Positions 10,981 through 35,146 of a DNA stretch of 35,352 nt are shown here, piece after piece. Position numbers and translations under genes: made by a program. Origin of the DNA: Chloroflexota bacterium. GTDB lineage: Bacteria > Chloroflexota > Limnocylindria > Limnocylindrales > CSP1-4. The stretch covers positions 1 through 35,352 of the forward strand of contig JBAWVU010000001.1 in the NCBI GenBank assembly GCA_037147135.1, in the 5' to 3' direction. How positions within the stretch are numbered: the stretch's first letter is position 1; each line of letters opens with the position of its first letter. Under the pieces are notes generated by a model that saw only the letters and a program-made list of their open reading frames with translations, ran no database searches and was not told the origin of the DNA.

Positions 10981-11035
10981 GTCGGCGGCTTTCGGGCTCA
11001 AGGCATCTCGCTCCGGCTGGAGAACAGCCTTCGGT

Positions 11036-11059: not shown

Positions 11060-11368
11060 ATCGGAACTGTGCCGAATGTCAAACCGACGTGACCATGTGT
11101 CGCCGCCCCGACCTCCGTCCGCGGCACGCCGCAGCCCGCGCCCGCATCCTCTCGGCGGAGACGCGACCGCGACCCGGTTCAGCGGCCCAGGTCCCGGCCA
11201 CGGCGTCCCCGGAGCGCCCCCGCGAGCCGCGCCCCGGCCTCGGTATCAGGCGTCGATCCAGCCACGGCGACTACGCGTGCGCGGGCCCCCTCGCCTGCCG
11301 GCGCGCCCGGGGCCCGAGCCGGCGTGAGACGCGCGGGGGCATTGACAGGGGGGCTAATCTTCGAGTGT

Positions 11369-14111: not shown

Positions 14112-15110
14112 ATGAGGTTCACGCGGATCTCCGGCCTGGCGGCCGGAGGCATGGCGCTCGCCCTGGTGGTCGGCGCATGCAGCAGCAGCAGCAGCCCGGC
14201 CCCGTCGAGCGGCGCCGCTGCGAGCGCCGGCACGGGGAGCGCGCCGTACATCGCCATCGTCTCGAAGGGCTCCCAGCACCAGTTCTGGCAGGCCGTCCAG
14301 AAGGGCGCCACTGATGAGGCGGCGGCCAAGGGCGCGACGATCACCTACGAAGGCCCTGCGTCCGAGTCCGAGGTCGACAAGCAGCTCACCATGCTGCAGA
14401 CGGCCCTCGACAAGCATCCGCAGGCGATCTGCTTCGCTGCCCTCGACAGCAAGGCTGCGACCCCGCTCCTCGAGAAGGCAAAGGCGGCCGGGATCCCGGT
14501 GGTCGGGTTCGACTCGGGCGTCGACAGCACCATCCCGGTGACCACCGTCGCCACGGACAACATCGCGGCCGCCGCCGTCGCAGCCGACCAGATGGCGACC
14601 GCCATCGGCGGGTCCGGCAAGGTGGCCCTCATCGTCCACGACCAGACCAGCCAGACGGGCCAGACCCGGCGCGACGGCTTCGTGAACCAGATCAAGGCCA
14701 AGTACCCGAACATCCAGATCGTCGACATCCAGTACGGCGCCGGTGACCCGGTCAAGTCGGCCGACATCGCCAAGGCGATCATGACTGCGAACCCCGACCT
14801 GAAGGGCTTCTTCGGCGCCAACGAGGGCTCCATCAAGGGCGTCCTCAACGCGCTCAAGGAGACCGGCAAGGAGAACTCGGTCATCGCGATCGGCTACGAC
14901 TCCGGCCAGCAGCAGATCGACGCGATCAACGCCGGCGTCGAGTACGGCGCGATCACCCAGAACCCGGTCGGCATCGGCGCCAAGTGCGTCGACGCCGCGC
15001 TCGATGCGATCGCCGGCAAGACCCTGCCCAAGACCATCGACACCGGCTTCTACTGGTACGACAAGACCAACATCAATGATCCGAACATCCAGGCGGTCCT
15101 CTACAAGTAG
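14112..15110 (+). CDS. Sugar ABC transporter substrate-binding lipoprotein (RbsB-like)
   Basis: RBS ggaggag. Lipobox LVVGAC followed by a Ser-rich linker. PBP type I body (IAIVSKGSQHQFWQAV...VVGFDSGV...IGYDSGQQQIDAI). Confidence 0.9.
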   Translation: MRFTRISGLAAGGMALALVVGACSSSSSPAPSSGAAASAGTGSAPYIAIVSKGSQHQFWQAVQKGATDEAAAKGATITYEGPASESEVDKQLTMLQTALDKHPQAICFAALDSKAATPLLEKAKAAGIPVVGFDSGVDSTIPVTTVATDNIAAAAVAADQMATAIGGSGKVALIVHDQTSQTGQTRRDGFVNQIKAKYPNIQIVDIQYGAGDPVKSADIAKAIMTANPDLKGFFGANEGSIKGVLNALKETGKENSVIAIGYDSGQQQIDAINAGVEYGAITQNPVGIGAKCVDAALDAIAGKTLPKTIDTGFYWYDKTNINDPNIQAVLYK

Positions 15111-15174: not shown

Positions 15175-16236
15175 ATGAGCACGATCAGCGACGTCGCGCG
15201 GCGGGCCGGCGTATCCGCCATGACCGTCTCGCGCGTCGTCAACAACTCCGGGTATGTGAGCCACGAGACCCGTGCGCGGGTGGTAGCCGCGATCGCGGAG
15301 CTCGGCTACGTCCCCAACGCCCTCGCCAGGCAGTTGCGATCCAAGCGTACGAAGACGCTCGCCCTCGTCGTGTCGGACATCTCGAACCCGTTCTTCACCA
15401 CGATCGCCCGCGGCGTCGAGGATGTCGCCGTCCGGCACGGGTTCTCAGTCATGTACTGCAACACGGACGAATCCGAGACCGAGGAGGCGCAATACCTCCT
15501 CATGCTCATCGAGCGCCACGTGGATGGCGTGCTGCTCGTCCCCGCCGGGAGCTCCGGCACGTCCTTCCGGTTGCTGCAGGCCCACGGGATGCCGCTGGTC
15601 GTGCTCGACCGCCGCCTCGCGACGCGCCGCGTCGACAGCGTGCGCTGCGACTCGGAGGCGGGTGCCCACGCGTTGACGCGCCACCTCATCGAGCTCGGGC
15701 ACCGCAGGATCGCGGTGCTCACCGGCCGGCGCGCGATCTCCACCTCCGTCGACCGCGTCGCCGGCTGCCGCCGCGCCCTCGAGGAGGCGGGGCTGGCCCT
15801 CGACGACGATCTCGTTTTCTACGGCGGCTACAACTTCGGCAACCTCAACCAGGCCGACGGTCATTGCATGGCAGAGAAGCTGCTCGCCTCGACGTCGGAC
15901 CGACCGACCGCGATCTTCGCCGCGAACAACTTCATCGCGTTCGGCGCGATCCGTGCCCTCCGCGAGGCCCGGCTCCGGGTCCCGGAAGACATGTCGATCG
16001 TGGCCTTCGACGACCTGCCCGTGGAGTGGGTGAACGATCCATTCCTCACCGTCGCCACGCAGCCTGCCTACGAGATCGGGCGCCGCGCAGCCGCGATGCT
16101 GCTGGAGCACCTCTCCGGCGAGCGCGCCGCCGGGGGCGAGGACGTGGTCCTCCCGTTCGACCTCATCATCCGGCGTTCCAGCGCTCCGCCGCGCGTCGCC
16201 CCCGAGGCGGTCGCGCTGGTGGGAGCCGTCGGATGA
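15175..16236 (+). CDS. LacI-family transcriptional regulator (paralogue 1)
   Basis: MSTISDVARRAGVSAMTVSRVVNNSGYVSHETRARVVAAIAELGYVPNALARQLR is a canonical LacI HTH. A PBP-like effector domain follows. Confidence 0.9.
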   Translation: MSTISDVARRAGVSAMTVSRVVNNSGYVSHETRARVVAAIAELGYVPNALARQLRSKRTKTLALVVSDISNPFFTTIARGVEDVAVRHGFSVMYCNTDESETEEAQYLLMLIERHVDGVLLVPAGSSGTSFRLLQAHGMPLVVLDRRLATRRVDSVRCDSEAGAHALTRHLIELGHRRIAVLTGRRAISTSVDRVAGCRRALEEAGLALDDDLVFYGGYNFGNLNQADGHCMAEKLLASTSDRPTAIFAANNFIAFGAIRALREARLRVPEDMSIVAFDDLPVEWVNDPFLTVATQPAYEIGRRAAAMLLEHLSGERAAGGEDVVLPFDLIIRRSSAPPRVAPEAVALVGAVG

Positions 16237-16282
16237 CCGGCCCGCGCCCGTGTTCGGCCCCGACCGCTTGCAGGAGCTCACG

Positions 16283-16702
16283 ATGCTGAAGACCCGCCTG
16301 CTCCACCCCGCGATCCTGGAGGCGCTCGGCGAGGCCGGCCACGGCGCCCAGGTCCTCATCGCGGACGGCAACTATCCCCTGCTGACCCGGTCGAACGAGG
16401 CCGCCCACCGCGTCTACCTGAACCTGGCGCCGGGCCTCCTCACCGTCACGGACGTCCTTGGGGTGCTGATCGACGCGATCCCGATCGAGGCGGCGCACGT
16501 GATGGCCCCCGACAGCGGCGAGGAGCCCGGCATCTTCGCCGAGTTCCGCGAGATGCTGCCAGGCACCCCGCTCCAGGGGCTCGGGCGCTTCGGGTTCTAC
16601 GACATGGCGCGCGGCCCCGACCTGGCGCTTGCCATCGCCACCGGCGAGCAGCGGATCTACGCCAACCTCCTCCTGACGATCGGCGTGGTGATGCCCGAGT
16701 AG
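16283..16702 (+). CDS. fucU: L-fucose mutarotase (RbsD/FucU family)
   Basis: Trimmed to ATG 16283, preceded by aggag. MLKTRLLHPAILEALGEAGHGAQVLIADGNYP...ATGEQRIYANLLLTIGVV parallels E. coli FucU (MLKT...GHGDEI...TGERAKYGNILLKKGV). It lies immediately upstream of fucI. Confidence 0.85.
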   Translation: MLKTRLLHPAILEALGEAGHGAQVLIADGNYPLLTRSNEAAHRVYLNLAPGLLTVTDVLGVLIDAIPIEAAHVMAPDSGEEPGIFAEFREMLPGTPLQGLGRFGFYDMARGPDLALAIATGEQRIYANLLLTIGVVMPE

Positions 16703-16771: not shown

Positions 16772-18574
16772 ATGACGACGATCGACACCACCGGCCGCTT
16801 CGTGGGCGACTGGCCCAGGATCGGCATCCGCCCGGCCATCGACGGCCGGATGCACGGCGTGCGCGAGTCGCTCGAGGCGCAGACGGCGGCGATGGCGCGC
16901 CGCACGGCCGACCTCCTCGTCGCGAACCTGCGCTACCCGGACGGGACGCCCGTCGAGGTCGTCGTCCCCGACCACACCATCGGTGGCGTGTACGAGGCCG
17001 CCAAGGTCGCCGAGCTCTTCCGCAAGGAGGGGGTGGGAGTCTCCATCACCATCACGCCGTGCTGGTGCTACGGCTCTGAGACGATGGACATGGATCCCCT
17101 CACCCCCAAGGCGGTCTGGGGCTTCAACGGCACCGAGCGCCCGGGTGCGGTCTACCTCGCGGCCGTCCTCGCGGCCCACACGCAGAAGGGCCTCCCGGCG
17201 TTCGGCATCTACGGGCGCGACGTCCAGGATGCCGACGACGGGACGATCCCGGCCGACGTGCAGGTGAAGATCCTCCGGTTCGCCCGGGCCGGCCTCGCGG
17301 CGGCGATCCTGCGCGGCAAGTCGTACCTCTCGCTCGGCGGCGTCTCGATGGGCATCGCCGGCTCCATCGTGGACCAGGCGTTCTTCGAGAAGTACCTCGG
17401 CATGCGCGTCGAGTGCGTCGACATGTCCGAGCTCACGCGCCGTCTCGACGAGGGGATCTACGACCCGGTCGAGCTCGACAGGGCGCTCGCCTGGACGAAG
17501 GCGAGCTGTCGCGAGGGCACGGACCGCAACCCCGCGGACAGGGCCAAGAGCCGCGAGGAGAAGGACCGCGACTGGGAGACGGTGGTCAAGATGACCCTGA
17601 TCACCCGCGACCTCCTCGTCGGAAGCCCGCGCCTCGCCGAGCTCGGGTTCGGCGAAGAGGCGATGGGTCGCAACGCGATCGTCGGCGGCTTCCAGGGCCA
17701 GCGCCAGTGGACCGACCACGCCCCCAACGGCGACTTCATGGAGGCGATCCTCAACTCGTCGTTCGACTGGAACGGGATCCGGGCGCCGCACATCTTCGCG
17801 ACGGAGAACGACAGCCTCAACGGCGCGACGATGCTCCTCGGCTACCTGCTGACGAACCGTGCCCAGATCTTCGCCGACGTCCGCACGTACTGGAGCCCGG
17901 AGGCCGTGAAGCGCGTCACCGGCCACGACCTCGAGGGTCGAGCCGCGGGTGGCTTCATCCACCTCATCAACTCCGGTGCTGCCACGCTCGACGCGACCGG
18001 CGCGATGGAAGCCGATGGCCAGCCGGTCATGAAGCCGTTCTGGGAGATCACCGAGGGCGACGTGCAGGCGGCCCTCGCGGCGACCACGTGGTACCCGGCC
18101 AACCGGGGCTACTTCCGGGGCGGCGGGTACTCCTCGCAATTCGTGAGCAAGGGCAGCATGCCCGTCACCATGGCCCGCCTCAACCTGGTCTCCGGCGCCG
18201 GGCCGGTGCTCCAGATCGCCGAGGGCTGGACGGTCGACCTGCCGCGGGATGTCCACGACATCCTCGACCAGCGCACCGACCCGACGTGGCCGACGCACTG
18301 GTTCGTGCCGCGCACCAACGGCGTCGGCCCGTTCCGCGACGTGTACGCCGTCATGGCGAACTGGGCCGCCAACCACGGCGCGATCAGCTTCGGCCACATC
18401 GGGGCCGACCTCATCAGCCTCGCGTCGATCCTCCGGATCCCGGTCCACATGCACAACGTGCCGGAGGAGGACATCTTCCGGCCGAGCGCGTGGGCCAACC
18501 TCGGCACGGCCGATCTCGAGGGCGCCGACTTCCGTGCCTGCGCCGACTTCGGCCCGCTCTACGGCCGCCGCTGA
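16772..18574 (+). CDS. fucI: L-fucose isomerase
   Basis: 600 aa. [107 protein letters not shown] and [11 protein letters not shown] are colinear with E. coli FucI as I recall it. Confidence 0.95.
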
Positions 18575-18685
18575 GACGGCCCGGCTGGGCGGGCCGCTCC
18601 GGCGACGGAGCCGGCCCGGTCCCGGTCCGGGGTCTCTGGCTCCGGGTCGCCTCGCGCGCTCGCCGTCGGCCGGGACCCCAGCGGG

Positions 18686-19543
18686 TCAGTAGCCGCGCAG
18701 CTCGGTGCTGGTCCGCCGCGGCAGGTCCCCGTGCGGTCGGCGCTCGAGCACGACGTACTCGAGGCCGTGGGCCCGGCAGAAGTCGCGCTTCTCGGGTTGA
18801 TCGCCGTCCTCGTTCACGACGTACAGGTGTGGCGCGATCGCGTCGATCTCCGGCTCGGCGTCCATCCAGCCCTTCCCGGTCGAGACGAGGCCGCGATGCA
18901 CGCTGCGCACCGCCCGGACCATGTACTGCCGCTCTTCCTGCCGCTGGAGCGGATGCCCGGGGCCCTTGAGCAGCCCGACGTTCCTGTCGCTCCCCACGAT
19001 CACGTAGAGGTCACCCAGCGCGGCGGCATCCCTGAAGAACTTGACGTGCCCCGAGTGGAGCCAGTCGAAGCACCCCGTCACCACGACCCGCCTCCTGCCG
19101 CTCGCACCTCCGGGGCCGTTGGTGCCGGGCTCGGGGAATCCGGCGATGTCCGGAGGTCCGATGACGCGGTAGTCGACGCCACGAGCACCACAGCGGGCGC
19201 GGATGTCGGGATCGTCCTCGTCCGCCGGGACCACGAGGGCGCCGAACTCGGTCGCGAGACGCGGGACCGCGAGCGAGAGTGGCAGCCGCACCATGGCGGC
19301 ACTGCCCACGTGGCGCAGGGATCGCGCGAGGAAGAGCCGCTCTGCCTGTGGAAAGCTGGGCGGGAACCCGCTGCCGGACTCGACGAGCGCGTCCGACGCG
19401 AGTCGAACGTGGACGGTTCCCAGGCGCGCGGCCTCCTCGAGGAACCGGACGTGCGAGGACCGCAGCTGGTCCAGGCTCATCGCCACGACGACCCTCGGTG
19501 GGCTCCCGCCGCGGCCTGCATCCGGCGGGCCGGCGTCGATCAT
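18686..19543 (-). CDS. Tandem cytidylyltransferase-fold (HIGH-motif) nucleotidyltransferase. The N-terminal copy is degenerate and the C-terminal copy is canonical.
   Basis: The start is taken as ATG 19543 (MIDAGPP), 10 nt after the upstream stop. The C-terminal half reads RRVVVTGCFDWLHSGHVKFFRDAAALGDLYVIVGSD (GxFDxxHxGH as in TagD, RfaE domain II, HldC and RibL). The N-terminal half reads PRVVVAMSLDQLRSSHVRFLEEAARLGTVHVRLASD and aligns to it, but lacks GxFD and the first His. Confidence 0.7.
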   Translation of the reverse strand: MIDAGPPDAGRGGSPPRVVVAMSLDQLRSSHVRFLEEAARLGTVHVRLASDALVESGSGFPPSFPQAERLFLARSLRHVGSAAMVRLPLSLAVPRLATEFGALVVPADEDDPDIRARCGARGVDYRVIGPPDIAGFPEPGTNGPGGASGRRRVVVTGCFDWLHSGHVKFFRDAAALGDLYVIVGSDRNVGLLKGPGHPLQRQEERQYMVRAVRSVHRGLVSTGKGWMDAEPEIDAIAPHLYVVNEDGDQPEKRDFCRAHGLEYVVLERRPHGDLPRRTSTELRGY

Positions 19544-19553
19544 CGGGTGCCCC

Positions 19554-20432
19554 CTACCGTGTCCGTACCGAGACGCGGGACGACCCGGGGACCACTTCCT
19601 TTGATGCGACGACCAGGTAGCCGCCGCCGCACCCCGAGTACATGGCTCCGTCATACCTCGCCTGGTACCAGCCGAGCAGCGACTTGAGGTCGATCGTGAT
19701 CGCCGGGTGCGCGAGGGTGTGGGGCAGGAGGGCGTCCCAGCACGTCGAGCATTCGTTCATGGAGGCTCCCAGGGCGACGACGTCCTGCCGGATGATCGCG
19801 TCGTAGCAGTCCGTGCCGCTCTGTCCCAGCCGCCTGACCCAGTCCGGATCCAGGCGCTTCACCCCTAGAGGGGTGTAGCCGGGAGACCGGGGGGACACGG
19901 CGACCAGGTGGATGGCCCGCTCCAGCCATCGGGCTGCCGCGGGATCGCAGGTGGACTCGATGTGGCACGGGAACCAGCCACCTGCGACTGACGCGTCGTA
20001 GTCGAGGCGGCTCACGCCCGGGAAGACGATCCCGCACATGTCCTGCGAGCCGGACGGCTCGGCCTTCGCCGCGTTCTCGGCGGCGTAGAGCTCGCGGACC
20101 AGGTCCATGGGTCGGCGGTCGGCGGGCAACCCGTCGCCCCACAGCGCGAAGGCGCTGGCTCGCGTGCCCGTCGCCATGCCGCTCCGGTCCATGTAGCGGA
20201 CGGACGGCTCCAGCGAGACGACAACCATGGAGCCGGGCGGTTCCGGGTCGTGGCCAGAGACGAAGGGCTGATCGATCCAGCCCCCCGCGAGCTGGAGGCG
20301 GTAGGGCAGGCGACCGATGATGTCGCCGAGCTCGGGCACGGGTGGCACGGCATCATCGCCGGGCAGGTCCGGGGCGCGACCCGCGGTGCTTTCGAGATCC
20401 ACCGGTGGCCCGGATGGCGGACGCGACACCAC
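19554..20432 (-). CDS. GHMP-kinase-like sugar kinase, compact, of the fucokinase/HddA-like subgroup
   Basis: RLPYRLQLAGGWIDQPF (cf. RI-LAGGGTD), DRSGMATGTRASA (a divergent version of the PxGSGLGSSSA phosphate loop), GSQDMCGIVFPG (cf. the G-x-QD motif of HddA/fucokinase), and the C-terminal MYSGCGGGYLVV (cf. SGAGGGGF). GTG 20432 is 1 nt after the epimerase stop. The Pro-rich first ~35 aa make the start uncertain. Confidence 0.55.
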   Translation of the reverse strand: MVSRPPSGPPVDLESTAGRAPDLPGDDAVPPVPELGDIIGRLPYRLQLAGGWIDQPFVSGHDPEPPGSMVVVSLEPSVRYMDRSGMATGTRASAFALWGDGLPADRRPMDLVRELYAAENAAKAEPSGSQDMCGIVFPGVSRLDYDASVAGGWFPCHIESTCDPAAARWLERAIHLVAVSPRSPGYTPLGVKRLDPDWVRRLGQSGTDCYDAIIRQDVVALGASMNECSTCWDALLPHTLAHPAITIDLKSLLGWYQARYDGAMYSGCGGGYLVVASKEVVPGSSRVSVRTR

Positions 20433-20433
20433 G

Positions 20434-21519
20434 TCAGCCCTCCACCACGGCCCGGCCCGCCTTGCGCGCCGCGTACTGGTCGGCGATCCAGCTGTACGTC
20501 GCCGCCATGCCGACCCGCAGCGGCGTGTTGGGCTCCCAGCCGAGGACGCTGCGGATGAAGGTGTTGTCGCTGTTGCGGCCGGCGACTCCCTTCGGCGCGT
20601 CCGGATCGTACGAGCGCTCCAGCGTGATGCCGGCGATCTCCTCGACGATCGACACGAGCTCGTCGATGGAGACGAGCTCGCTGGAGCCGAGGTTGATGGG
20701 CGTCGCGATGAGCGCGTCGCTGTGCATGATCCGGTCGATCCCGACCAGGCAGTCCTCGATGAAGCAGAAGCTGCGGGCCTGCGTCCCGTCGCCCCATATC
20801 TCGATCCGCAGGTCGTCGGCGTCCTGTGCCTCGATCACCTTGCGGCACATGGCGGCGGGCGCCTTCTCGCGGCCGCCGAACCACGTCCCGTTGGGACCGT
20901 AGATGTTGTGGAAGCGCGCGATGTGCGTCTCGAGCCCGCGCTCCGCCCAGTACTCCTGGCAGAACATCTCCGAGATGAGCTTCTCCCATCCGTAGCCGCG
21001 CTCGGCCATCGCCGGGTATGCGTCGGATTCCTTGAGGGCCAGGGCGTCGGGCGTCTTCTGGAGATCCGTGTTGTACGCGCAGGCCGACGACGAGAAGAAG
21101 TAGCGCCGCACGCCGGCCCGGTACGCGGCCTCGATCATGTTGGTGTTGATGAGGATGCTCCGCAGGCACATGACCCGGAAGCGCTCGATGAAGCCCATCC
21201 CACCCATGTCGGCGGCGAGGTTGTACACCTCGACGGCGCCTTCGACCGCACGGATCGCGTTGGCCTCGTGGCCCAGGTCCATCGACAGGCACTCCACGCC
21301 GGGCACGCGCTGGTACCACTCGGGGAGCGGTTTCCGATCGACGGCCCGGATGCGCGTGTGGCCCAGGTCGTGGAAGTACCGGGCGAGCGAGCCCCCGATG
21401 AACCCGCCGGCGCCGGTGATGACGATGAGGTCGTCGCGATCGAGCCCGCGCTCGATGTCGGTGCCGGGCACCGTGCCGTTGAGTCCGATGGTCATCGCCG
21501 CATCGCCTTTCCTGTTCAC
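20434..21519 (-). CDS. gme: GDP-D-mannose 3,5-epimerase homologue (extended SDR)
   Basis: ITGAGGFIGGSLA, NLAADMGGMGFI, YFFSSSACAYN, LKESDAYPA...GYGWEKL, ARFHNIYGPNGTWFGGREKAPAAMCRK, IWGDGTQARSFCFIEDC and GVAGRNSDN are colinear with plant GME as I recall it (NLAADMGGMGFI, SSACIYP, RFHNIYGPFGTWKGGREKAPAAFCRK, WGDGLQTRSFTFIDEC, GVRGRNSDN). The catalytic Cys, Tyr and Lys positions are retained. The start is GTG 21519 (GTGA overlap with lacI) or ATG 21495. Confidence 0.85.
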   Translation of the reverse strand: MNRKGDAAMTIGLNGTVPGTDIERGLDRDDLIVITGAGGFIGGSLARYFHDLGHTRIRAVDRKPLPEWYQRVPGVECLSMDLGHEANAIRAVEGAVEVYNLAADMGGMGFIERFRVMCLRSILINTNMIEAAYRAGVRRYFFSSSACAYNTDLQKTPDALALKESDAYPAMAERGYGWEKLISEMFCQEYWAERGLETHIARFHNIYGPNGTWFGGREKAPAAMCRKVIEAQDADDLRIEIWGDGTQARSFCFIEDCLVGIDRIMHSDALIATPINLGSSELVSIDELVSIVEEIAGITLERSYDPDAPKGVAGRNSDNTFIRSVLGWEPNTPLRVGMAATYSWIADQYAARKAGRAVVEG

Positions 21520-22535
21520 ATCGAAGGTGGGGGGACGCCCCGGGGATCACCACTCGAGCGTCGAATCACCAGGTGGGTGGGCAGGACGACCTCGCGGAAC
21601 CCCGGCGCCGGGCCGAGAGAGAGACGCTCGAGCAACATGGTGACGCTCCGCTCGCCCATCTCGTGCGCCGGCTGAGCCGCCACGGTGAGGAACGGGAACG
21701 TGACCATGGCGGGCGGCAGGTCATCGAAGCCGACCACGGCCACGTCCCCCGGCACGCGGACCTTCATCTCGTCGAGAGCCTGCAGCGCGCCGATCGCGAT
21801 GAAGTTGTTGGCGGCGAAGAGAGCCGTGGGCCGAGGCCTCGCCGATGCGGCCAGCCTCGCCATCTCCCGGCCGCTCTCGATGGTGAACGCGCCACGATAG
21901 ACGCGAGGGGGCCGGCGTCCCGCCCCGACGAGCGCCTTGCGGAAGCCGGCCACGCGGTCGGCGGCCGTGGACACAGCACGGGGCCCACTCAGCACCGCGA
22001 TCGACTCGTGCCCCAGCGACACGAGCAACCGGGCCAGCTCGATGGCGCCGCCTCTCGAATCGCCACGAACGACGTCGGCCGCGCGCCGGGTGAGCCGCCG
22101 GTCCACCACGACGACCGGCGTTCCGTGGAGGCGACACTGCTCGATCGCGGCGGCGCCGTGTCGGGCGGGCACGAGGAGGATCCCGTCGACGCGCCGCTGC
22201 AGGAGCATCCGGACGTAGCGCTGCTCGTCCGCCTCGCGCTCGTCCGTGTTGCAGATGATGAGCATCATCCCGGCATCGCTCGCGGCATCCTCGACACCAC
22301 GCGCGACGGTGGTGAAGAAGGGGTTCGTCATGTCAGTGACGATGAGCGCGATCGTGTCCGTCCGCCTGGAGCGGAGGCTTCGGGCGACGGAGTTGGGCAC
22401 GTAGCCGATCTCGGCGATGGCCAGTTCGACCCGGGCTCGGACCTGTCCGCTCACCGGGCCGGAGCCGTTCACGACACGAGACGCGGTGATGGCCGCGACG
22501 CCGGCGCGGTTCGCCACGTCCACGATCGTCGGCAT
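21516..22535 (-). CDS. LacI-family transcriptional regulator (paralogue 2), first gene of the epimerase operon
   Basis: MPTIVDVANRAGVAAITASRVVNGSGPVSGQVRARVELAIAEIGYVPNSVARSLR. About two-thirds identical by eye to the LacI at 15175 over the first ~120 aa. ATG 22535 is preferred; GTG 22541 is possible. Confidence 0.9.
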   Translation of the reverse strand: MPTIVDVANRAGVAAITASRVVNGSGPVSGQVRARVELAIAEIGYVPNSVARSLRSRRTDTIALIVTDMTNPFFTTVARGVEDAASDAGMMLIICNTDEREADEQRYVRMLLQRRVDGILLVPARHGAAAIEQCRLHGTPVVVVDRRLTRRAADVVRGDSRGGAIELARLLVSLGHESIAVLSGPRAVSTAADRVAGFRKALVGAGRRPPRVYRGAFTIESGREMARLAASARPRPTALFAANNFIAIGALQALDEMKVRVPGDVAVVGFDDLPPAMVTFPFLTVAAQPAHEMGERSVTMLLERLSLGPAPGFREVVLPTHLVIRRSSGDPRGVPPPSM

Positions 22536-22612
22536 CGACACGGGCTCTGCCCCTCGGATGACTTCCCCCTGCCCCTGGCGCCGGGAGCGGCCAGGAGTGG
22601 CAGCGCGAGCGG

Positions 22613-22626
22613 TGGTAACGCTACCA
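22613..22626. promoter_or_regulatory. Candidate LacI-family operator in the divergent lacI2 / FGGY-kinase intergenic region
   Basis: tggtaacgctacca is a 14-bp inverted repeat with a central CG and 12 of 14 positions symmetric. It lies 78 nt upstream of ATG 22535. Confidence 0.45.
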
Positions 22627-22870
22627 TGCAGGGTGCCGCCAGTCTCCCTGAGGAGCGAGCGACCGGCGTCGCGCTCTACGGCCGCCGCTTATCCATCGCC
22701 GCTGGCCGGGGCCGGTCAAGCACGGCGGTCCCGCGCGGCCGCCGGTGGGATCTATCCTTGGTCGGGCCGCGAGGTCTCCGGCCAGCGCCGGAGCCACCGG
22801 CTCGGGCGGGCACCGGCGGCACGGGACGCCGGCGAGCAGATCCCGTATCGACAGCAGCCGAGGGAAAGCC

Positions 22871-24370
22871 GTGAGTGACCTGTTGCTCGGTGTCGACATC
22901 GGCACGTCGAGCTCCAAGGGCGTGCTGGTCCGGCCGGACGGAACGATCGTCGCGACGGCCCAGCGACCGCACCAGCTGTCGCTTCCCCGCCCGGGCTGGG
23001 CGGAGCATGACGGCGAGACGGTCTGGTGGGCCGACTTCGTCGCGATCGCTCGCGAGCTCGCGGCCCACGAAGGGGGTCGGATCGCCGCGGTCGGGGTCAG
23101 CGGCATCGGCCCGGCCGTCCTGCCGGTCGACGAGGCCGGCCGATCGCTCCGGCCCGCGATCCTGTACGGCATCGACACCCGCGCCACCCGGGAGGTCGAC
23201 GAGATGACCGACCGCTTCGGGGCGGACGCCATCCTCGCCCGCGGCGGGACACTCCTGACCTCTCAGGCCGCGGGACCCAAGCTCGCCTGGATCCGTCGGA
23301 ACGAGCCCGACGTCTGGGCTCGGACGCGCCGCTTCCACATGGCCCATTCGCTCGTCATCGAGCGCCTGACCGGCGAGTACGTCCTGGACCACCACTCGGC
23401 GAGCCAGTGCGACCCGCTCTACGACATGACGGCGGCCGCGTGGGCGACGGACTGGGCGGAGGACGTCGTGCCCGGCGTGGAGCTCCCACGGCTCGCGTGG
23501 TCGAACGAGGTCGCGGCCCGCGTGCACGCGGAGGGCGCCGCGGCCACGGGCATCCCGGAAGGCACTCCCGTCGTCGCGGGCACGATCGACGCCTGGGCCG
23601 AGGCCCTGAGCGCGGGCGTGCGCGACCCGGGCGACACGATGCTCATGTACGGCACGACGATGTTCATGGTGGAGATCGCCCGAGCGTTCCGCCCCGAGGC
23701 CAGCCTCTGGACCACCCAGGGCGTCTTCGAGGGGACGTGCACCTACGCCGCCGGCCTCTCGACGTCGGGAGGCCTGACGGTCTGGCTGCGCGACATCGTC
23801 GGCCTGGAGTTCGAGGCCCTCATCGTCGAGGCGGCGCAGACGCCGCCCGGCGCCGATGGCCTCGTCGTCCTGCCCTTCTTCGGCGTGGCGCGCTCGCCCA
23901 TCTTCGACCCCCGGGCTCGCGGTGGGATCTTCGGCCTGACGCTGAGCCACGGCCGCGGCCACCTGTATCGCGGGCTGCTCGAGGGCTCTGCCTACGAGGT
24001 CCGCCACAACCTCGAGGTGATGGAGGCCGCGGGTGCCGCGCCAGAGCACCTGACCGCTGTCGGCGGAGGGACGAAGAGTGGCCTGTGGACCCAGGTCGTC
24101 TCAGACGTCACCGGGCTCCGGCAGGTCATCCCCGCGGTGACGATCGGGGCGAGCTACGGCGATGCCATGCTCGCAGGTGACGGTGCGGGCCTGGTCGCGG
24201 CCGATGCCCGATGGAACGCGCCCGCCGACACCCTCGTGCCCGATGGTCGCGCCGGCGCCCGGTACGACGAGCTGTATCGCATCTACCGGGCCCTCTATCC
24301 GGCGACGCGGGAGCTCGCCCACGCGATCGCGCGGGTGCAGGAGGAGACCGCCGAGGCGTCGGCTCGTTGA
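22871..24370 (+). CDS. FGGY-family carbohydrate kinase (xylulokinase-like; substrate unknown)
   Basis: Trimmed to GTG 22871, preceded by gagggaaag. LLLGVDIGTSSSKGVLV, PGWAEHD, GVSGIGPAVLPVD, VVAGTIDAWAEALS, TAVGGGTKSGLWTQVVSDVTG. Confidence 0.85.
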   Translation: MSDLLLGVDIGTSSSKGVLVRPDGTIVATAQRPHQLSLPRPGWAEHDGETVWWADFVAIARELAAHEGGRIAAVGVSGIGPAVLPVDEAGRSLRPAILYGIDTRATREVDEMTDRFGADAILARGGTLLTSQAAGPKLAWIRRNEPDVWARTRRFHMAHSLVIERLTGEYVLDHHSASQCDPLYDMTAAAWATDWAEDVVPGVELPRLAWSNEVAARVHAEGAAATGIPEGTPVVAGTIDAWAEALSAGVRDPGDTMLMYGTTMFMVEIARAFRPEASLWTTQGVFEGTCTYAAGLSTSGGLTVWLRDIVGLEFEALIVEAAQTPPGADGLVVLPFFGVARSPIFDPRARGGIFGLTLSHGRGHLYRGLLEGSAYEVRHNLEVMEAAGAAPEHLTAVGGGTKSGLWTQVVSDVTGLRQVIPAVTIGASYGDAMLAGDGAGLVAADARWNAPADTLVPDGRAGARYDELYRIYRALYPATRELAHAIARVQEETAEASAR

Positions 24371-24418: not shown

Positions 24419-25360
24419 TCAGGCCGGGTCGGACTCGTCCATCTCGGCCCGCGTCGGTGGCTGGGCGCCTGCCCGCGTGCAGGTGATCGCCGCCGCCCGG
24501 TCGGCGCACGTCAGGGCCTCGCGCAACGCGTCCGCCGGGATCTCCCGGATGCTCGCTCTCTCGAGCCGGCCGGCGGCGTGCAGCCACGCGAGGAGGCCCG
24601 AGGTGAAGGCGTCACCGGCGCCCACGGTGTCCGAGACCACGACCGGCGTTCCTGCGACGGCGACGCGGTCCCGGGCCGTCAGGCCGATGGAGCCGTCGGC
24701 TCCCCTCGTGACGACGACAAGACCGGGACCGCGCGCCAGCCACGCCTCAGCCGCCGCGTCCGGTGCCGTCTCCGGGTAGAGCCACGCGAGATCGGCACGG
24801 CTCACCTTCACGACGTCCGCGAGCGAGACCCACCCTTCGAGGCGGGCGACGTAGGCCGGACGATCACCGACGAGGCTCGGGCGGACGTTGGGATCCAGGC
24901 TGAGCACCCGGCTCCCGTGCTCCCGGCGCATGACCGCCTCGAAGGCCGACGCCCCGGGCTCGCGGACCATCGAGATCGAGCCGAAGTGCAGGGCGGTGAC
25001 CTCCGAGGGAAGGACGGCGGGGAGGTCGTCGACGCGGAGCATCCGGTCCGCGGCGTTCACGTCGTGGAACGTGTACACCGGTTCGGCCCCCGTCTCCAGG
25101 TGGACGATGGCCAGGGTCGAGAGCTCGTCGCCCTCCTGCACGAGCCGGCAGTCCACCCCGTCGGCCAGCAGGCGCCGGCGCAGCATCTGCCCGAACGGAT
25201 CCCGGGAGACCCGCCCCATGAACCCGACGGGGATGCCCAGCCTGCCGAGGCCCACCGCCACGTTGAACGACGAGCCGCCGGCCCGCGCGACGTAGGCCGG
25301 CTCGTCACCCTGCGACAGCGGGACGAGATCGATGAGCGCCTCGCCACAGACCAGGATCAT
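24419..25360 (-). CDS. PfkB-family sugar kinase (fructokinase-like)
   Basis: MILVCGEALIDLVP...AGGSSFNVAVGLGRLG, LSLDPNVRP, DTVGAGDAFTSGLL. RBS gggggaga. Confidence 0.85.
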   Translation of the reverse strand: MILVCGEALIDLVPLSQGDEPAYVARAGGSSFNVAVGLGRLGIPVGFMGRVSRDPFGQMLRRRLLADGVDCRLVQEGDELSTLAIVHLETGAEPVYTFHDVNAADRMLRVDDLPAVLPSEVTALHFGSISMVREPGASAFEAVMRREHGSRVLSLDPNVRPSLVGDRPAYVARLEGWVSLADVVKVSRADLAWLYPETAPDAAAEAWLARGPGLVVVTRGADGSIGLTARDRVAVAGTPVVVSDTVGAGDAFTSGLLAWLHAAGRLERASIREIPADALREALTCADRAAAITCTRAGAQPPTRAEMDESDPA

Positions 25361-25426
25361 CTGTCTCCCCCACGGTCGACCGTGCGTGACCGCCTGCCTC
25401 GAACGCTCGGCGGCCGCCGTCGCCCT

Positions 25427-26719
25427 CTAGGCGCTTCCCACATCGCGGCGCAGCGACGCCGCATCCTCGAGGCGCCGCCGGATGGCCCCGAGGAACCGCG
25501 CCCCCAGCTCGCCGTCGACGAGCCGGTGATCGGCTGACAGCGTGAGCTTCATGACCGACCGGACGGCGATCCCGTCGCCGAGCGCCACCGGCGTGGGGAC
25601 CGCGCTCGCCACGGCGAGTATGGCCGCCTCGCCCGGGTTGATGATCGCGCTGAACTCCTCGACGCCGAACATGCCGAGGTTCGACACGGTGAACGTGCTC
25701 CCGGTCATGTCGTCGACCGGCAGCGTCCCGTCCCGCGCCGCGGCCGCGAGCGCCGCAGCCTTTCCGTGGAGCTCGTCGATCGCCAGCCGGTCCGCGTCGC
25801 GGATGACGGGCACGACGAGCCCGGCCGGCACCGTCACCGCGAGCCCGAGGTGGACGCGGCGCCTCGTCCAGACCGAGACGCCGTCCGTCCGCGAGTTCAC
25901 GTCGGGCATCTCGGCAAGGGTCTGCGCTGTCGCGAGCAGGATGAAGTCGGTGACCGTGTAGCTCCGGCCCGCCGCCTTGAGCTCCTCTCGGAGCGCGAGC
26001 AGCCGCGTGACGTCCACGGCGACCGTCACGGTGAAGTGGGGGATCGTCGCGAAGCTCTGCGTGAGGCGCTCGGCGATGACGCGCCGCATCCGGCTGAGTG
26101 GGCGCGGCTCCTCCTCGCCGTCGACGGCCGCGACGAAGGCCACAGGCGTCGGCGCGGCGGCCGCAGGGGAGACCGGCGCGGCGGTCCCAGGCGTCGGCGC
26201 CGCGGTCGCGATGTCGCGCGCGGCCATCGCAGCACGGACGTCCCGCTCCACCACCCGTCCTTCCGGCCCGGTGCCGGCGACCGCCCGGGGGTCGAGGCCG
26301 GCGTCCGCGGCGAGTCGAGCGGCACGCGGGCTGATGCGCAGCCGCGCGGACATGTCGGTCGGCGTGGCCGGAGCCACCGGGGCTGGTGGAGCGGCAGCGG
26401 CGGCCGGGATCGTCGCGACAGGCTCGACCGGGGTCGCGGGCGCCGGGGCGGCCTCGGGCGGTGCCTCGGGGATGTCCTCGCCGGGCATGCCGACGTACGC
26501 GCAGACCGTGTTGACCGGGACCGTCTCGCCCACTTCCACGAGGCGCCGCAGGAGGACTCCCTCGTCGAACGCCTCCACGTCCATGACCGACTTGTCGGTC
26601 TCGATCTCGAAGAGGACGTCACCCCGATGGACCGGGTCGCCCTCGTTCTTGTGCCAGGCGACGACGACGCATTCCTCGGTCATCTGCCCGGGCTTCGGCA
26701 TGAGGATCGGATGGACCAT
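25427..26719 (-). CDS. Dihydrolipoamide acyltransferase (E2) of a 2-oxoacid/acetoin-type dehydrogenase complex
   Basis: Lipoyl domain with IETDKSVMDV, Ala/Pro linkers, a peripheral-subunit-binding domain (ISPRAARLAADAGLD), and a catalytic domain ending LTLSADHRLVDG. RBS gagggaa. Confidence 0.9.
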   Translation of the reverse strand: MVHPILMPKPGQMTEECVVVAWHKNEGDPVHRGDVLFEIETDKSVMDVEAFDEGVLLRRLVEVGETVPVNTVCAYVGMPGEDIPEAPPEAAPAPATPVEPVATIPAAAAAPPAPVAPATPTDMSARLRISPRAARLAADAGLDPRAVAGTGPEGRVVERDVRAAMAARDIATAAPTPGTAAPVSPAAAAPTPVAFVAAVDGEEEPRPLSRMRRVIAERLTQSFATIPHFTVTVAVDVTRLLALREELKAAGRSYTVTDFILLATAQTLAEMPDVNSRTDGVSVWTRRRVHLGLAVTVPAGLVVPVIRDADRLAIDELHGKAAALAAAARDGTLPVDDMTGSTFTVSNLGMFGVEEFSAIINPGEAAILAVASAVPTPVALGDGIAVRSVMKLTLSADHRLVDGELGARFLGAIRRRLEDAASLRRDVGSA

Positions 26720-26776
26720 CGGGGTTCCCTCGGCGACTTGGACGGATCGGGCGATCCTGGAAGTGCGGCAGCTCGG

Positions 26777-29080
26777 CTACACGAGCGCCAGGACGGCGTG
26801 GACGATGTCGTCGGCGTTCGGGAGGAACGCCTTCTCGAGGCCCTCGGCCTGCGGGGAGATCCCGTTCGCGGCCCCGATCCGCCCCACCGGGCCGTCGAGG
26901 AAGTCGAAGGCCTCGAGCTGGATCCGCGCGACGACCTCGTTCACGAAGCTGCCGACGAGGACCGCCTGGCTGGCCACCACGCAGCGGCCGGTCTTGCGGA
27001 CGGAGGCGAGGACGGTCTCGATGTCGAGCGGGACGAGGCTCCGGAGATCGATCACCTCCGCGGAGATCCCATGCGCGGCCTGCAGCGTGTCGGCGGCTGC
27101 GAGCGCGTCGAGGACCGCGGGCCCCCACGCGACGAGCGTCGCGTCGGTCCCGTCGCGCGCGACGCGCGCGACCCCCAACGGCACGAGATGCTCCCCCTCG
27201 GGCACGACGCCCTTCGTCGTATAGAGCCCCTGGCCCTCGACGAACATGACCGGGTTGTTCGTCCGGATGGCCGACTTGAGGAGCCCCTTCGCGTCGGCCG
27301 GCGTCGCCGGATAGACGATGTAGAGGCCCGGCAGGTGGGTGAAGATGCTCTCGAGCGACTGCGAGTGCTGGCCGCCGTAGCCCTTGCCTGCGCCGACGGA
27401 TGCGCGGATGACGAGGGGAACCTCGACCTGCGCCCCGCTCATGTAGTGCCACTTCGCAGCCTGGTTGGCGATCTGGTCCGAGGACATCAGGGCGAAATCC
27501 ATGTACATGAGCTCGACGACCGGTCGAATGCCGACGATCGCCGCGCCGACCGCCGTCCCGCAGATGCAGGCCTCCGAGATCGGCGTGTTGAACACGCGGT
27601 CCCGCCCGAACGACTCGAGGAGCCCCTTCGTGAGCTTGAACGCGCCGCCATAGTCCGCGACATCCTCGCCGTAGAAAATGACCCGTGCGTCGCGCGTCAT
27701 CTCCTCGACCATCGCCTCGCGGAGGGCGTCCTTGTAGCTGATCCGGCCGTCTGCGTCCCGGCTGGTGGCGGGCGGCGGCGCGTGGGTCACGCTCTCCCGC
27801 GCTCGGGCCGGCACCTCGTCCGCCGCCGTGTCCGTGTAGAGGTACCGCAGGACGTCGGCAGGATCCGGGTCGGCCGCCCCGGCCGCCCGGACGGCGGCAC
27901 GCGCATTCCGATCCCGCGCCCCGGCCTCGACCGCTGCGAGCCCATCGGCGTCGGCGACGCCGCTCGCGACCAGCTGGGTCCTGAGCCGCTCGATCGGATC
28001 GGTCGCCTTCCAGGCGGCTTCCTCCTCCCGCGTCCGGTACTCGTTGCGCGGGTCGGACAGCGAGTGACCGTAGTAGCGGTACGTGCTGGCCTCGATGAGG
28101 ACCGGCCCCTCGCCGGCACGGCAGAGTGCCCCGGCTCGGCGGACGGCATCGCGTACGGCGAGCACGTCCATCCCGTTGACGACCTCCGCGTGCATCCCGT
28201 CCTCGGCGAAGCCGGCGCCGCGCCGTGCGAGGTGGCGGATCCCCATGACCTCGTCGTCGGTCCGGCCGGTCATCCCGTAGTGGTTGTTCTGGATGAAGTA
28301 GATGATCGGGAGCCCGTATGGGTGGTCGCCCGCGAGGTGGTTGGTCCACTGCGCCTGCGCCGCCCAGTTGAGCGACTCGAGCACGACGCCGTTCGCGTAC
28401 GCGCCGTCGCCGGCGAAGCAGCACACGACGCGGTCCGACCGTTCGTAGCGGGCGGCCATCGCGGCCCCTGTCGCGATCGGCACGCTGCCACCGACGATCG
28501 CGTTCGCGCCGAGGTTGCCGGTCGCGAAATCGCCGATGTGCATCCCGCCGCCGCGGCCGTGGGAGTAGCCCTCCTCCTTGCCGAAGAGCTCCGCGATCAC
28601 CCGGTACACGTGCTCCTCGAGAGCCTCTTCGATGAGCTCGTCGTGCGTCGTGGCCGTCGTGCCCGGCACGCGTGCCCGGAGCTCCTCGTCGCTCATGTGG
28701 CGGATCGCCGCGAACCCCTTGGCGATCGCGTCACCGTGCCCGCGATGGGAGCTGGTGACCTGGTCGTCCGGGCGGAGGGCGGTGCACGCTCCCACCGCCG
28801 TGCCCTCCTGCCCGATCGAGACGTGGGTGGGGCCGCGGTAGTCGTACCCCGGCAGCGCGTCGTAGCCGCCCGATCTCAGGCGGACGATCATCTCCTCCAG
28901 CTCGCGGATCGCGAGCATGTCGTCGAGGAGGGCGAGCGCCTCGGCGGGGTCGATCCCGCCGGCGCCGAGCTCCGAGGCGAGGTCGCCCGCGTACGCGAAG
29001 CCGACGACGGAGCCGCAGGACTCGTCGAAGGGCGCGAAGTCCGGTCGCGTGTCGCTCTTGTAGGTCGGCTCCGCTGTCAT
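26777..29080 (-). CDS. Fused E1 alpha + E1 beta thiamine-diphosphate-dependent dehydrogenase (acetoin/2-oxoacid dehydrogenase E1 type)
   Basis: 767 aa. The alpha part (residues ~1-430) has SHRGHG, the ThDP motif FAGDGAYANG...IQNNHYG, and TYRYYGHSLSD. The beta part starts near residue ~446: ISYKDALREAMVEEM, GEDVADYGGAFKLTKGL, FNTPISE, ELMYMDF, EVIDLRSLVPLD. RBS ggagg. Confidence 0.9.
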   Translation of the reverse strand: MTAEPTYKSDTRPDFAPFDESCGSVVGFAYAGDLASELGAGGIDPAEALALLDDMLAIRELEEMIVRLRSGGYDALPGYDYRGPTHVSIGQEGTAVGACTALRPDDQVTSSHRGHGDAIAKGFAAIRHMSDEELRARVPGTTATTHDELIEEALEEHVYRVIAELFGKEEGYSHGRGGGMHIGDFATGNLGANAIVGGSVPIATGAAMAARYERSDRVVCCFAGDGAYANGVVLESLNWAAQAQWTNHLAGDHPYGLPIIYFIQNNHYGMTGRTDDEVMGIRHLARRGAGFAEDGMHAEVVNGMDVLAVRDAVRRAGALCRAGEGPVLIEASTYRYYGHSLSDPRNEYRTREEEAAWKATDPIERLRTQLVASGVADADGLAAVEAGARDRNARAAVRAAGAADPDPADVLRYLYTDTAADEVPARARESVTHAPPPATSRDADGRISYKDALREAMVEEMTRDARVIFYGEDVADYGGAFKLTKGLLESFGRDRVFNTPISEACICGTAVGAAIVGIRPVVELMYMDFALMSSDQIANQAAKWHYMSGAQVEVPLVIRASVGAGKGYGGQHSQSLESIFTHLPGLYIVYPATPADAKGLLKSAIRTNNPVMFVEGQGLYTTKGVVPEGEHLVPLGVARVARDGTDATLVAWGPAVLDALAAADTLQAAHGISAEVIDLRSLVPLDIETVLASVRKTGRCVVASQAVLVGSFVNEVVARIQLEAFDFLDGPVGRIGAANGISPQAEGLEKAFLPNADDIVHAVLALV

Positions 29081-29135
29081 CGTCTGCCTCCGGGTGTCTG
29101 TGTCGGGGCTGTCTGGCGGGTCGCGTGGTGGCGGG

Positions 29136-29939: not shown

Positions 29940-29948
29940 ATCGCGCAC

Positions 29949-35134: not shown

Positions 35135-35146
35135 TCTCGCACCGGT

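Follow-up and report, generated by a model that had tools for sequence, protein, structure and literature searches.

In Bacteroides, L-galactose is catabolised oxidatively, by an L-galactose dehydrogenase, a lactonase and an L-galactonate dehydrogenase, through L-galactonate and D-tagaturonate. FKP (L-fucokinase/GDP-fucose pyrophosphorylase), the enzyme of L-fucose salvage in the same genus, phosphorylates L-galactose and D-arabinose in addition to fucose, with micromolar affinity for fucose and millimolar affinity for L-galactose, a preference of about 100-fold (PMC11982464). All physiological roles described for GME (GDP-mannose 3,5-epimerase) are biosynthetic (PMC8787198), its equilibrium lies at 80:15:5 with 80% GDP-mannose, and the one bacterial GME characterised so far has been assigned to lipopolysaccharide synthesis (PMC6678494). 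Here we analyse a stretch of 35,352 nucleotides from a Chloroflexota bacterium (GenBank assembly GCA_037147135.1, contig JBAWVU010000001.1, positions 1 to 35,352; hereafter the window), in which a GME homologue is encoded in one operon with a LacI-family repressor (LacI2), a GHMP-like protein and a tandem cytidylyltransferase-fold protein (CT). On balance, the three enzymes would appear to form a repressor-controlled activation and epimerisation module for a free L-galacto-configured sugar, leading from L-galactose to GDP-mannose.

The four-gene operon outlined in the original prediction is real. Four minus-strand open reading frames (ORFs) lie between positions 18686 and 22541, and their G+C content at third codon positions (0.86-0.95) is of the coding type. 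The predicted gaps of 1 nt between the GME and kinase genes and of 10 nt between the kinase and CT genes were also found. The predicted GTGA overlap of lacI2 with the GME gene, in contrast, depends on the choice of start codon. Public gene calls for the same contig start GME at an ATG at 21495, 8 codons downstream (353 amino acids), which turns the overlap into a 20-nt gap, so that the overlap holds for only one of the two start codons. For CT, we placed the start at 19543 and not at 19654, the start of the longest ORF, because an identical protein (P0121), deposited as 'MAG: adenylyltransferase/cytidyltransferase family protein [Chloroflexota bacterium]', is annotated at 285 amino acids in NCBI.

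The distribution of the block was followed through its kinase gene, which was sought in one genome per species. At least 586 stretches were confirmed. The best 80 of them belong to Chloroflexota, Acidobacteriota, Planctomycetota, Verrucomicrobiota, Latescibacterota and Armatimonadota, and the order GME-kinase-CT is thus conserved across at least six phyla; the cultured planctomycete Fontivita pretiosa B-254, in which the locus (L073) reads AraC-GME-kinase-CT, is among the carriers. Neighbourhoods were counted in 83 loci from other genomes, 57 of which have full flanks (3 kb or more to either side). The gene immediately upstream of the kinase is that of GME in 74 of the 83, and the one immediately downstream is that of CT in 65; most of the gaps in these counts are contig ends. 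The block of GME, GHMP-like and tandem CT genes thus recurs. Among clustered ORFs, the strand is shared with the kinase by GME in 70/70 cases and by CT in 54/54. This arrangement is far beyond chance. GME-type genes had been thought uncommon in bacteria, a view that does not survive the finding of at least 586 genome stretches that encode the partner kinase, which GME adjoins in 74 of the 83 loci counted. In Latescibacterota loci (L065 and probably L077), extra DNA parts the kinase gene from that of CT, some 2 kb further downstream; the insert in L065 (10805-11941) encodes a C-5 cytosine DNA methylase.

The epimerase has the appearance of a genuine GME, as had been claimed. Its best match in the PDB is the Arabidopsis GDP-mannose 3,5-epimerase 2c59 (E 4e-80, 272 bits; 47% identity over 316 amino acids), followed closely by 8sg0 (271 bits), whereas other families of short-chain dehydrogenases/reductases (SDR) reach at most 83 bits (MoeE5, GDP-fucose synthase, the UDP-xylose synthase UXS and GalE). 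The Pfam Epimerase domain (PF01370) is present with an E value of 1.4e-33. Eight residues, S143, C145, Y174, K178, N203, K217, R243 and R306 in Arabidopsis numbering, define GME and separate it from GalE and GDP-fucose synthase; S143/Y174/K178 form the extended-SDR catalytic triad, and the acid-base pair Cys145/Lys217 together with Arg306 marks GME, whereas GDP-fucose synthase uses Cys/His/Lys (PMC8787198). All eight are kept in the window protein and are invariant across 67 sequences (the window protein and 66 orthologues from related loci), including the diphosphate-binding R243 and N203. By residues and scores, the enzyme sides with the characterised GMEs and not with another SDR specificity. 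GME is also the most conserved gene of the block (57-85% identity). The homologue is predicted to interconvert GDP-mannose and GDP-L-galactose or GDP-L-gulose, the reaction of EC 5.1.3.18. Residues that touch the sugar C6 or the guanine base, which might tell 6-deoxy from 6-hydroxy sugars or GDP from other carriers, were sought in the GME papers, and none were found.

The GHMP-like protein had no match in Pfam or NCBIfam (E ≤0.01) or in a phmmer search of the PDB, and its homologues, which fill more than 7000 database clusters, are all named 'hypothetical protein'. Because sequence models gave nothing significant, its fold had to be placed by structure prediction. An AlphaFold (AF2) model built from 32 homologues had a mean predicted local distance difference test (pLDDT) score of 77 and a predicted template-modelling score of 0.78. 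Foldseek returned 57 matches to the PDB at E ≤0.001, and nearly all of the 50 listed belong to the GHMP family. The best was the fucokinase part of Bacteroides fragilis FKP with beta-L-fucose-1-phosphate (9iip, E 1.8e-6). The heptokinase WcbL and HddA-like kinases came second, then mevalonate-diphosphate decarboxylases and galactokinases; homoserine kinase was found as well. A family profile run against PDB sequences also ranked FKP first, at an E value (0.28) that is not significant. This alignment sets R45, W52, D54 and Q55 on R592, W599, D601 and T602 of FKP, which contact the fucose ring (PMC11982464). The Arg, Trp and Asp are identical in the two proteins, and Thr602 of FKP is Gln here. 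Fucokinase sugar-binding motif I is thus present, with R45...GGW52-I-D54-Q55-P placed on R592...GGW599-T-D601-T602-P, and G50, G51, W52, D54, Q55 and P56 are invariant among 32 sequences of the kinase family.

Further conserved motifs of the protein are GGWIDQPF, GMATGTR, PSGSQDM and SGCGGGY. The last is invariant and is placed on AGGGGY of FKP as motif III (GAGGGG). An invariant SGSQD (G128, Q130, D131) and E119 stand at a spacing comparable to that of G759/Q761/D762 and E751 of FKP, to which they probably correspond, although no tool aligned them. The sequence models do not place the protein among GHMP or FKP proteins directly; the link runs through family members that carry PF08544 and through a fused paralogue, 35% identical to the window kinase, that matches the NCBIfam FKP model at E 9.5e-15. 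The GHMP sugar kinase originally proposed is borne out in its two-domain fold, as modelled. With FKP as the nearest structure and the fucose-contacting Arg, Trp and Asp aligned, an L-galacto-configured sugar fits better than the analogy with heptose kinases.

The CT protein bears out the claim of a tandem cytidylyltransferase fold with a HIGH-family motif. Pfam CTP_transf_like (PF01467) covers residues 155-225 of 285 (E 6e-12), and the best NCBIfam match is rfaE_dom_II. Over its whole length, the AF2 model (pLDDT 86) resembles human ethanolamine-phosphate cytidylyltransferase (ECT; 3elb, 4xsv) with template-modelling (TM) scores of 0.70-0.75, while the C-terminal half matches HldC (heptose-1-phosphate adenylyltransferase), TagD, CCT and other single-domain enzymes. 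The C-terminal domain carries H163-S-G-H166 and R277-T-S-T-x-L-R-G (RTSTELRG in the window), both invariant or nearly so, and in an alignment of 31 homologues HSGH and R(T/S)STxLRG are kept. In the same alignment the N-terminal domain lacks HxGH and reads SLDNLRSxDVRFL. Given this loss, the protein would be a pseudo-dimeric tandem with one probable active site, its N-terminal domain probably being non-catalytic.

Two independent links tie the kinase to a transferase. The first is displacement. Six loci of Acidobacteria lack CT and encode instead a protein of about 570 amino acids with the fucose pyrophosphorylase domain PF07959 (200 bits; 172 bits to the NCBIfam FKP model); in L037 this gene lies directly upstream of GME. 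Among the 57 loci with full flanks, CT is found in 48, the PF07959 pyrophosphorylase in 4, and both in none. GME in the six CT-less loci is 71-80% identical to that of the window in five and 57% in L068. A swap for PF07959 with GME so little changed speaks for an equivalent function of CT and for GDP as the carrier. The second link is fusion. A 384-amino-acid protein (L060:5563-6717, minus strand) joins one CT domain to a kinase domain; against the C-terminal domain of the window CT its CT part shows 48% identity (E 2e-41), and its kinase part is the paralogue described above (35% identity to the window kinase, E 3e-44). The profile of the kinase family found 791 representatives at E ≤0.001 in a representative library. 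Their fusion architectures include tandem CT plus kinase, a triple fusion of RhaM mutarotase, CT and kinase, a phosphorylase-superfamily domain plus CT and kinase, and, in a few cases, a glycosyltransferase (GT2 or TcdA-like) plus kinase. The CT-kinase fusions are probably single-protein sugar-activating enzymes. Fusions of about 380 amino acids form a very large uncharacterised family annotated only as 'cytidyltransferase-like' (for example L060:5563-6717, P0241-P0360, P0366, P0380, P0399, P0408, P0457 and P0462), and in L084 one such fusion lies between a sugar ATP-binding cassette (ABC) importer and a LacI gene.

To describe the genes around the block, ORFs of all loci were clustered and the recurrent clusters annotated. 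The commonest enzymatic neighbour is a mannose-1-phosphate guanylyltransferase of the ManC type, found in 21 loci; in 16 of these it shares the strand of the block, and its usual place is directly after CT. The other recurrent neighbours point to uptake and catabolism of sugars, in agreement with the context first proposed: LacI regulators (35 loci) and AraC regulators (6), two clusters of RbsD/FucU mutarotases (12 and 10 loci; a FucU-type gene in 17 of the 57 with full flanks), GH29 alpha-L-fucosidases (7 to 8), fucI (8 to 10; 7 of the 57), FucP-like transporters of the major facilitator superfamily (4), and ribose-type ABC importers. The fucI of the window itself scores 1044 bits against the NCBIfam equivalog, for which the cut-off is 775. 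In L085, one strand carries the genes for the kinase, CT, ManC, FucU, FucI, FucK and FucA; among the annotated recurrent neighbours, fucK and fucA accompany fucI in this one locus. A set of ABC importer, LacI, FucU and FucI genes like that of the window adjoins the module in L003, L004, L012, L025 and L047, and in a locus of Verrucomicrobia the block is surrounded by sugar transporters and by genes of the families GH3, GH10 and GH29. No glycosyltransferase or polysaccharide-export gene was found among the annotated recurrent neighbours of the 83 loci. Among these neighbours, the consistent embedding in glycan-synthesis clusters that would have spoken for a purely biosynthetic role was therefore not seen. 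Likewise absent from the annotated recurrent neighbours were a GDP-L-galactose phosphorylase, a phosphatase and a dehydrogenase, and no HIT-domain protein was found among the scanned window genes or the annotated recurrent neighbour clusters.

LacI2 has a LacI helix-turn-helix domain (PF00356) and Peripla_BP_1/3/4 domains, and scores below every NCBIfam equivalog cut-off. In 28 of 74 related loci, a LacI2-type gene (at least 45% identity) stands no more than 5 kb from GME, either ahead of it or behind CT. In the window, a 14-bp palindrome with a central CG, TGGTAGCGTTACCA, was found upstream of lacI2, at a distance of 72 nt from its start and between lacI2 and a divergent FGGY kinase gene; it is the only match in the window. 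The site was recognised by reading the sequence, followed by a pattern search, and had been missed by a generic inverted-repeat search. With at most one mismatch, 35 copies of its consensus TGGTANCGNTACCA fall in the 37 kb of sequence upstream of GME or LacI genes of related loci and 11 in 1184 kb elsewhere, an enrichment upstream of the block of about 100-fold. Of the 28 loci that have a LacI2-type gene, 24 contain it; of the 46 that do not, 3. In L033, an operator of the LacI2 type immediately precedes an ABC importer gene, in the gene row that leads to the block, and similar sites lie near the ABC importer genes of L017 and L022. The conservation of the palindrome in relatives supports, by phylogenetic footprinting, the proposed LacI control of the operon: LacI2 would bind the palindrome TGGTAACGTTACCA upstream of its own gene and repress the operon until an effector appears. 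Scans of positions 18400-22900 for sigma-70 promoters and intrinsic terminators gave nothing above shuffled expectation. A second regulator, LacI1, encoded 5 kb away, is a paralogue of LacI2 (about 50% identical). LacI1 accompanies the ABC-FucU-FucI set and LacI2 the GME block, and their separate orthologues in relatives (63-77% identical for LacI1, 56-78% for LacI2) suggest two regulons for two related sugars.

Taken together, the fold, residue, neighbour, displacement and fusion evidence agrees with the predicted Leloir-like logic of kinase, nucleotidyltransferase and epimerase, as far as sequences can tell. In the proposed route, a FucU-type mutarotase, the gene of which belongs to the operon or adjoins it in many genomes, would supply the beta-anomer, and the fucokinase-like GHMP protein would phosphorylate C1 of the sugar with ATP. 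The C-terminal domain of CT would then join the beta-L-sugar-1-phosphate to a nucleoside triphosphate to give the NDP-L-sugar. The context of GME, of ManC and of a GTP-dependent pyrophosphorylase in the place of CT makes GTP the most likely nucleotide. The GME homologue would epimerise C3 and C5, which in the case of L-galactose would yield GDP-D-mannose, the thermodynamically favoured side of the equilibrium (80:15:5). GDP-mannose could enter the general pool. Alternatively, ManC, the gene of which immediately follows that of CT in roughly one locus in four, could use the released pyrophosphate to form mannose-1-phosphate and GTP, so that L-galactose and ATP would give mannose-1-phosphate, and onward fructose-6-phosphate, at a cost of one ATP. 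We favour L-galactose over L-fucose as the sugar because epimerisation of GDP-L-fucose would give GDP-D-rhamnose, which has no obvious onward route, and because the usual fucIKA route for fucose is often encoded in the loci concerned. Catabolism of L-fucose through the module was considered and rejected on the chemistry, GDP-D-rhamnose being no shorter a way to central metabolism than fucIKA of the same loci.

Several points weigh against a catabolic route from L-galactose. The module is very widespread, although L-galactose is far less common in nature than L-fucose. To our knowledge, CTP or ATP, and not GTP, is the substrate of all CT-fold enzymes yet characterised. ManC is absent from most loci, including the window, and no phosphomannomutase or phosphomannose isomerase gene was found linked to the block. 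The genes associated with the module are 'fucose' genes, no sequence feature separates a 6-hydroxy from a 6-deoxy sugar, and FKP itself prefers fucose about 100-fold over L-galactose (PMC11982464). In the GHMP-like protein, motif II, the phosphate loop, reads GMATGTR where the motif PxGSGLGSSA has GSGLGSS, conserved yet atypical, and the loop is poorly modelled (pLDDT below 50 at residues 81-86), which makes kinase activity likely but not certain. Finally, the fusion of some distant members of the kinase superfamily to glycosyltransferases means that the wider family includes anabolic use.

The main alternative is salvage of L-fucose, or of L-galactose, into the nucleotide-sugar pool for glycans. 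It shares its first two steps with the catabolic route and differs from it only in the fate of the product: the kinase and CT would make GDP-L-fucose, as FKP does in Bacteroides, and GME would either diversify it, to GDP-D-rhamnose, GDP-6-deoxy-L-gulose or GDP-6-deoxy-D-altrose for surface polysaccharides, or make GDP-L-galactose from GDP-mannose. L-fucose is abundant, which would explain the wide distribution, and GH29, FucP and FucU are fucose genes. The nearest structural relative of the kinase is a fucokinase with micromolar affinity for fucose and millimolar affinity for L-galactose (PMC11982464), some distant relatives are fused to GT2 or TcdA-like glycosyltransferases, and the single characterised bacterial GME is placed in lipopolysaccharide synthesis (PMC6678494). 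However, the block stands under LacI or AraC regulators beside importers and glycoside hydrolases, with no glycosyltransferase or export gene among its annotated recurrent neighbours, and in L085 it runs in the same direction as a complete fucIKA catabolic set. For plain salvage to GDP-fucose, moreover, an epimerase is superfluous, whereas none of the genes in the block is more conserved than that of GME, and linkage to ManC suits GDP-mannose and not 6-deoxy products. We therefore consider salvage unlikely, though deserving of serious attention.

It is less likely still that the same enzyme logic serves another nucleotide or sugar, that is, a CDP- or ADP-sugar, or L-gulose, D-arabinose or another L-sugar. 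Isomerases of the FucI type act on D-arabinose too, as in the E. coli fuc system. FKP likewise phosphorylates D-arabinose (PMC11982464), and the best matches of CT use ATP (HldC and RfaE-II) or CTP (TagD and ECT). For a pentose, however, epimerisation at C5 is impossible. As to the nucleotide, the epimerase keeps the diphosphate- and sugar-site residues of GME and is 47% identical to the strictly GDP-dependent plant enzyme, a GTP-type fucose pyrophosphorylase replaces CT in Acidobacteria with the epimerase little changed, and ManC, the commonest enzymatic neighbour, handles GDP-mannose. Flux in the biosynthetic direction, in which ManC would supply GDP-mannose, GME would make GDP-L-galactose or GDP-L-gulose for an L-sugar-containing lipid, glycan or ascorbate-like metabolite, and the kinase and CT would recycle free L-sugar, accords with every physiological role described for GME (PMC8787198) and with the frequent adjacency of ManC, but is very improbable, since the equilibrium disfavours L-sugars, no consuming enzyme (glycosyltransferase, GDP-L-galactose phosphorylase, phosphatase or dehydrogenase) is conserved beside the block, and sugar-responsive repressors, importers and fucosidases suit the use of an external sugar.

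The operon and its associated neighbours are listed in Table 1. The window has a G+C content of about 70% and is packed with sugar-utilisation genes. An actinobacterial origin, which this G+C content first suggested, was rejected, as the protein identical to CT and the closest loci stem from Chloroflexota metagenome-assembled genomes.

Table 1. Features of the GME-kinase-CT operon and of the neighbouring sugar-uptake genes in the window
Feature	Position	Strand	Description
Candidate LacI2 operator	22613-22626	unassigned	Palindrome TGGTAGCGTTACCA, consensus TGGTANCGNTACCA
lacI2	21516-22541	-	LacI-family repressor; first gene of the operon in this genome
GME homologue	20434-21519	-	GDP-mannose 3,5-epimerase-like, extended SDR
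GHMP-fold protein, 292 amino acids	19554-20432	-	Predicted anomeric kinase for an L-fucose/L-galactose-configured sugar
Tandem cytidylyltransferase-fold protein (CT), 285 amino acids	18686-19543	-	Predicted sugar-1-phosphate nucleotidylyltransferase
fucU, RbsD/FucU mutarotase	16250-16702	+	Associated neighbour, convergent with the operon
fucI, L-fucose isomerase	16772-18574	+	Associated neighbour, convergent with the operon
Ribose-type sugar ABC importer, ATPase	11472-12986	+	By Pfam; upstream of fucU-fucI
Ribose-type sugar ABC importer, permease	13035-14021	+	By Pfam; upstream of fucU-fucI
Ribose-type sugar ABC importer, binding protein	14112-15110	+	By Pfam; upstream of fucU-fucI
LacI1, second LacI-family regulator	15175-16236	+	By Pfam; upstream of fucU-fucI

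Several other gene sets of the window concern sugars. Divergent from lacI2 is a gene for an FGGY-family kinase (22745-24370, plus strand; 499 amino acids, from a later start, in the public calls), XylB-like but below the equivalog cut-off. It was considered as a part of the module and rejected, having no counterpart in the 83 related loci, and so seems specific to this genome. Beyond it, positions 24419-29948 (minus strand) encode a PfkB sugar kinase, a 2-oxoacid dehydrogenase E2, a 767-amino-acid fused E1 alpha-beta subunit and a DeoR regulator; the dehydrogenase set may be of the acetoin or pyruvate type, and the same genes adjoin the module in the closest relative, L004. An L-rhamnose-type cluster (687-11127, minus strand) comprises a DeoR regulator, an ABC importer, a RhaM mutarotase, an FGGY kinase, a xylose-isomerase-like TIM barrel protein and a 565-amino-acid ORF with no Pfam match (687-2384). 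Its FGGY kinase (3436-4947) is the best match in the window (44%) to the fucK of L085. A fuculose-phosphate aldolase (class II aldolase, fucA) was sought in the window and none was found, which may mean that this cluster also serves the steps that follow fucI. Over the last 3 kb (32001-35352), where a DsrE-like protein, an HAD hydrolase and a further FGGY kinase are encoded, the G+C content falls from about 0.70 to 0.61-0.65, and this DNA may be of different origin.

Extended to all carriers, the proposal is bolder and correspondingly more tentative. It is possible, at somewhat short of an even chance, that a widespread and unrecognised Leloir-like pathway takes L-galactose through GDP-L-galactose to GDP-D-mannose in the organisms behind the at least 586 kinase-encoding stretches, polysaccharide-degrading bacteria of soil and water from at least six phyla, with an unannotated family of fucokinase-like GHMP kinases, GME running 'backwards', CT as the first CT-fold sugar-1-phosphate guanylyltransferase and ManC closing a cycle of GTP and pyrophosphate. 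If so, it would be a nucleotide-sugar-mediated route from an L-hexose into central metabolism and the first catabolic role of GME, so far known from the synthesis of vitamin C, cell walls and lipopolysaccharide. It would give a function to thousands of 'hypothetical proteins' and to many generic 'cytidyltransferase-like' proteins, and the CT-kinase fusion families would be a large untapped set of one-protein sugar-activating enzymes. It would also explain how poorly cultured phyla of soil, peat and freshwater (Chloroflexota, Acidobacteriota, Planctomycetota and Verrucomicrobiota) use L-galactose- and fucose-type sugars from plant, algal and microbial glycans. Compact sets of kinase, nucleotidyltransferase and epimerase, natural fusions included, could be used to make expensive GDP-L-sugars. 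The proposal is open to experiment, as the genes are small, Fontivita pretiosa is in culture and the substrates can be purchased. In the literature, of which our coverage was incomplete, we found no description of the block, of a bacterial L-galactose 1-kinase or of catabolism through GDP-L-galactose. The papers on the topic were limited to plant ascorbate papers, a GME review and FKP papers, among them an FKP phylogeny that does not include this kinase family.

Among known systems, the Bacteroides oxidative route has the same purpose as that proposed here, assimilation of L-galactose, but involves no phosphorylation or nucleotide sugar, and none of its enzymes is encoded here. Heptose activation (HldE/RfaE; HddA with HddC) likewise pairs or fuses a sugar kinase with a CT-fold nucleotidyltransferase; among single-domain proteins, HldC and RfaE-II come nearest to the CT domain, and kinases of the WcbL/HddA type are the second-best matches of the GHMP-like protein. 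The module differs in lacking GmhA and GmhB, in sugar-site residues that match fucokinase, in an epimerase of the GME and not the HldD type, and in its regulation by a sugar repressor. With the plant Smirnoff-Wheeler pathway and the GM35E of Methylacidiphilum fumariolicum it has in common the epimerase family, the catalytic residues, the interconversion of GDP-sugars and the link to ManC. Its proposed flux is reversed, however, from L-galactose to mannose, with a kinase and a nucleotidyltransferase to feed the L-sugar in, and it has no GDP-L-galactose phosphorylase, phosphatase or dehydrogenase.

The two closest systems are FKP salvage (in Bacteroides and plants; FUK with GFPP in mammals) and the Leloir pathway. 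FKP offers the nearest kinase structure, its fucose-contacting Arg, Trp and Asp are kept, the sequence of a kinase and then a sugar-1-phosphate nucleotidylyltransferase is the same, and the Acidobacteria variant even uses a true PF07959 gene of the GFPP type. In the module, by contrast, the kinase is too divergent for Pfam and NCBIfam models, the pyrophosphorylase of most lineages is an unrelated tandem CT-fold protein, GME is added as an obligatory partner, and the context is catabolic and not glycan-synthetic. The Leloir pathway for D-galactose (GalM, GalK, GalT, GalE), too, is encoded in repressor-controlled catabolic operons. It leads to a mainstream NDP-sugar by way of an extended-SDR epimerase, after the steps of a mutarotase and a GHMP anomeric kinase and the activation with a nucleotide, two of the protein superfamilies being common to both. 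Here, however, there is no HIT-family GalT to exchange the nucleotide between two sugar phosphates; its part would fall to the CT-fold pyrophosphorylase, together with ManC in loci that have it, much as in the Isselbacher (pyrophosphorylase) variant. GDP, and not UDP, is presumably the carrier, the mutarotase is of the FucU and not the GalM type, and the epimerase would invert C3 and C5, turning an L-sugar into a D-sugar, whereas that of the Leloir pathway inverts C4. In its logic the module thus resembles both the Leloir pathway and FKP salvage, but it is a member of neither.

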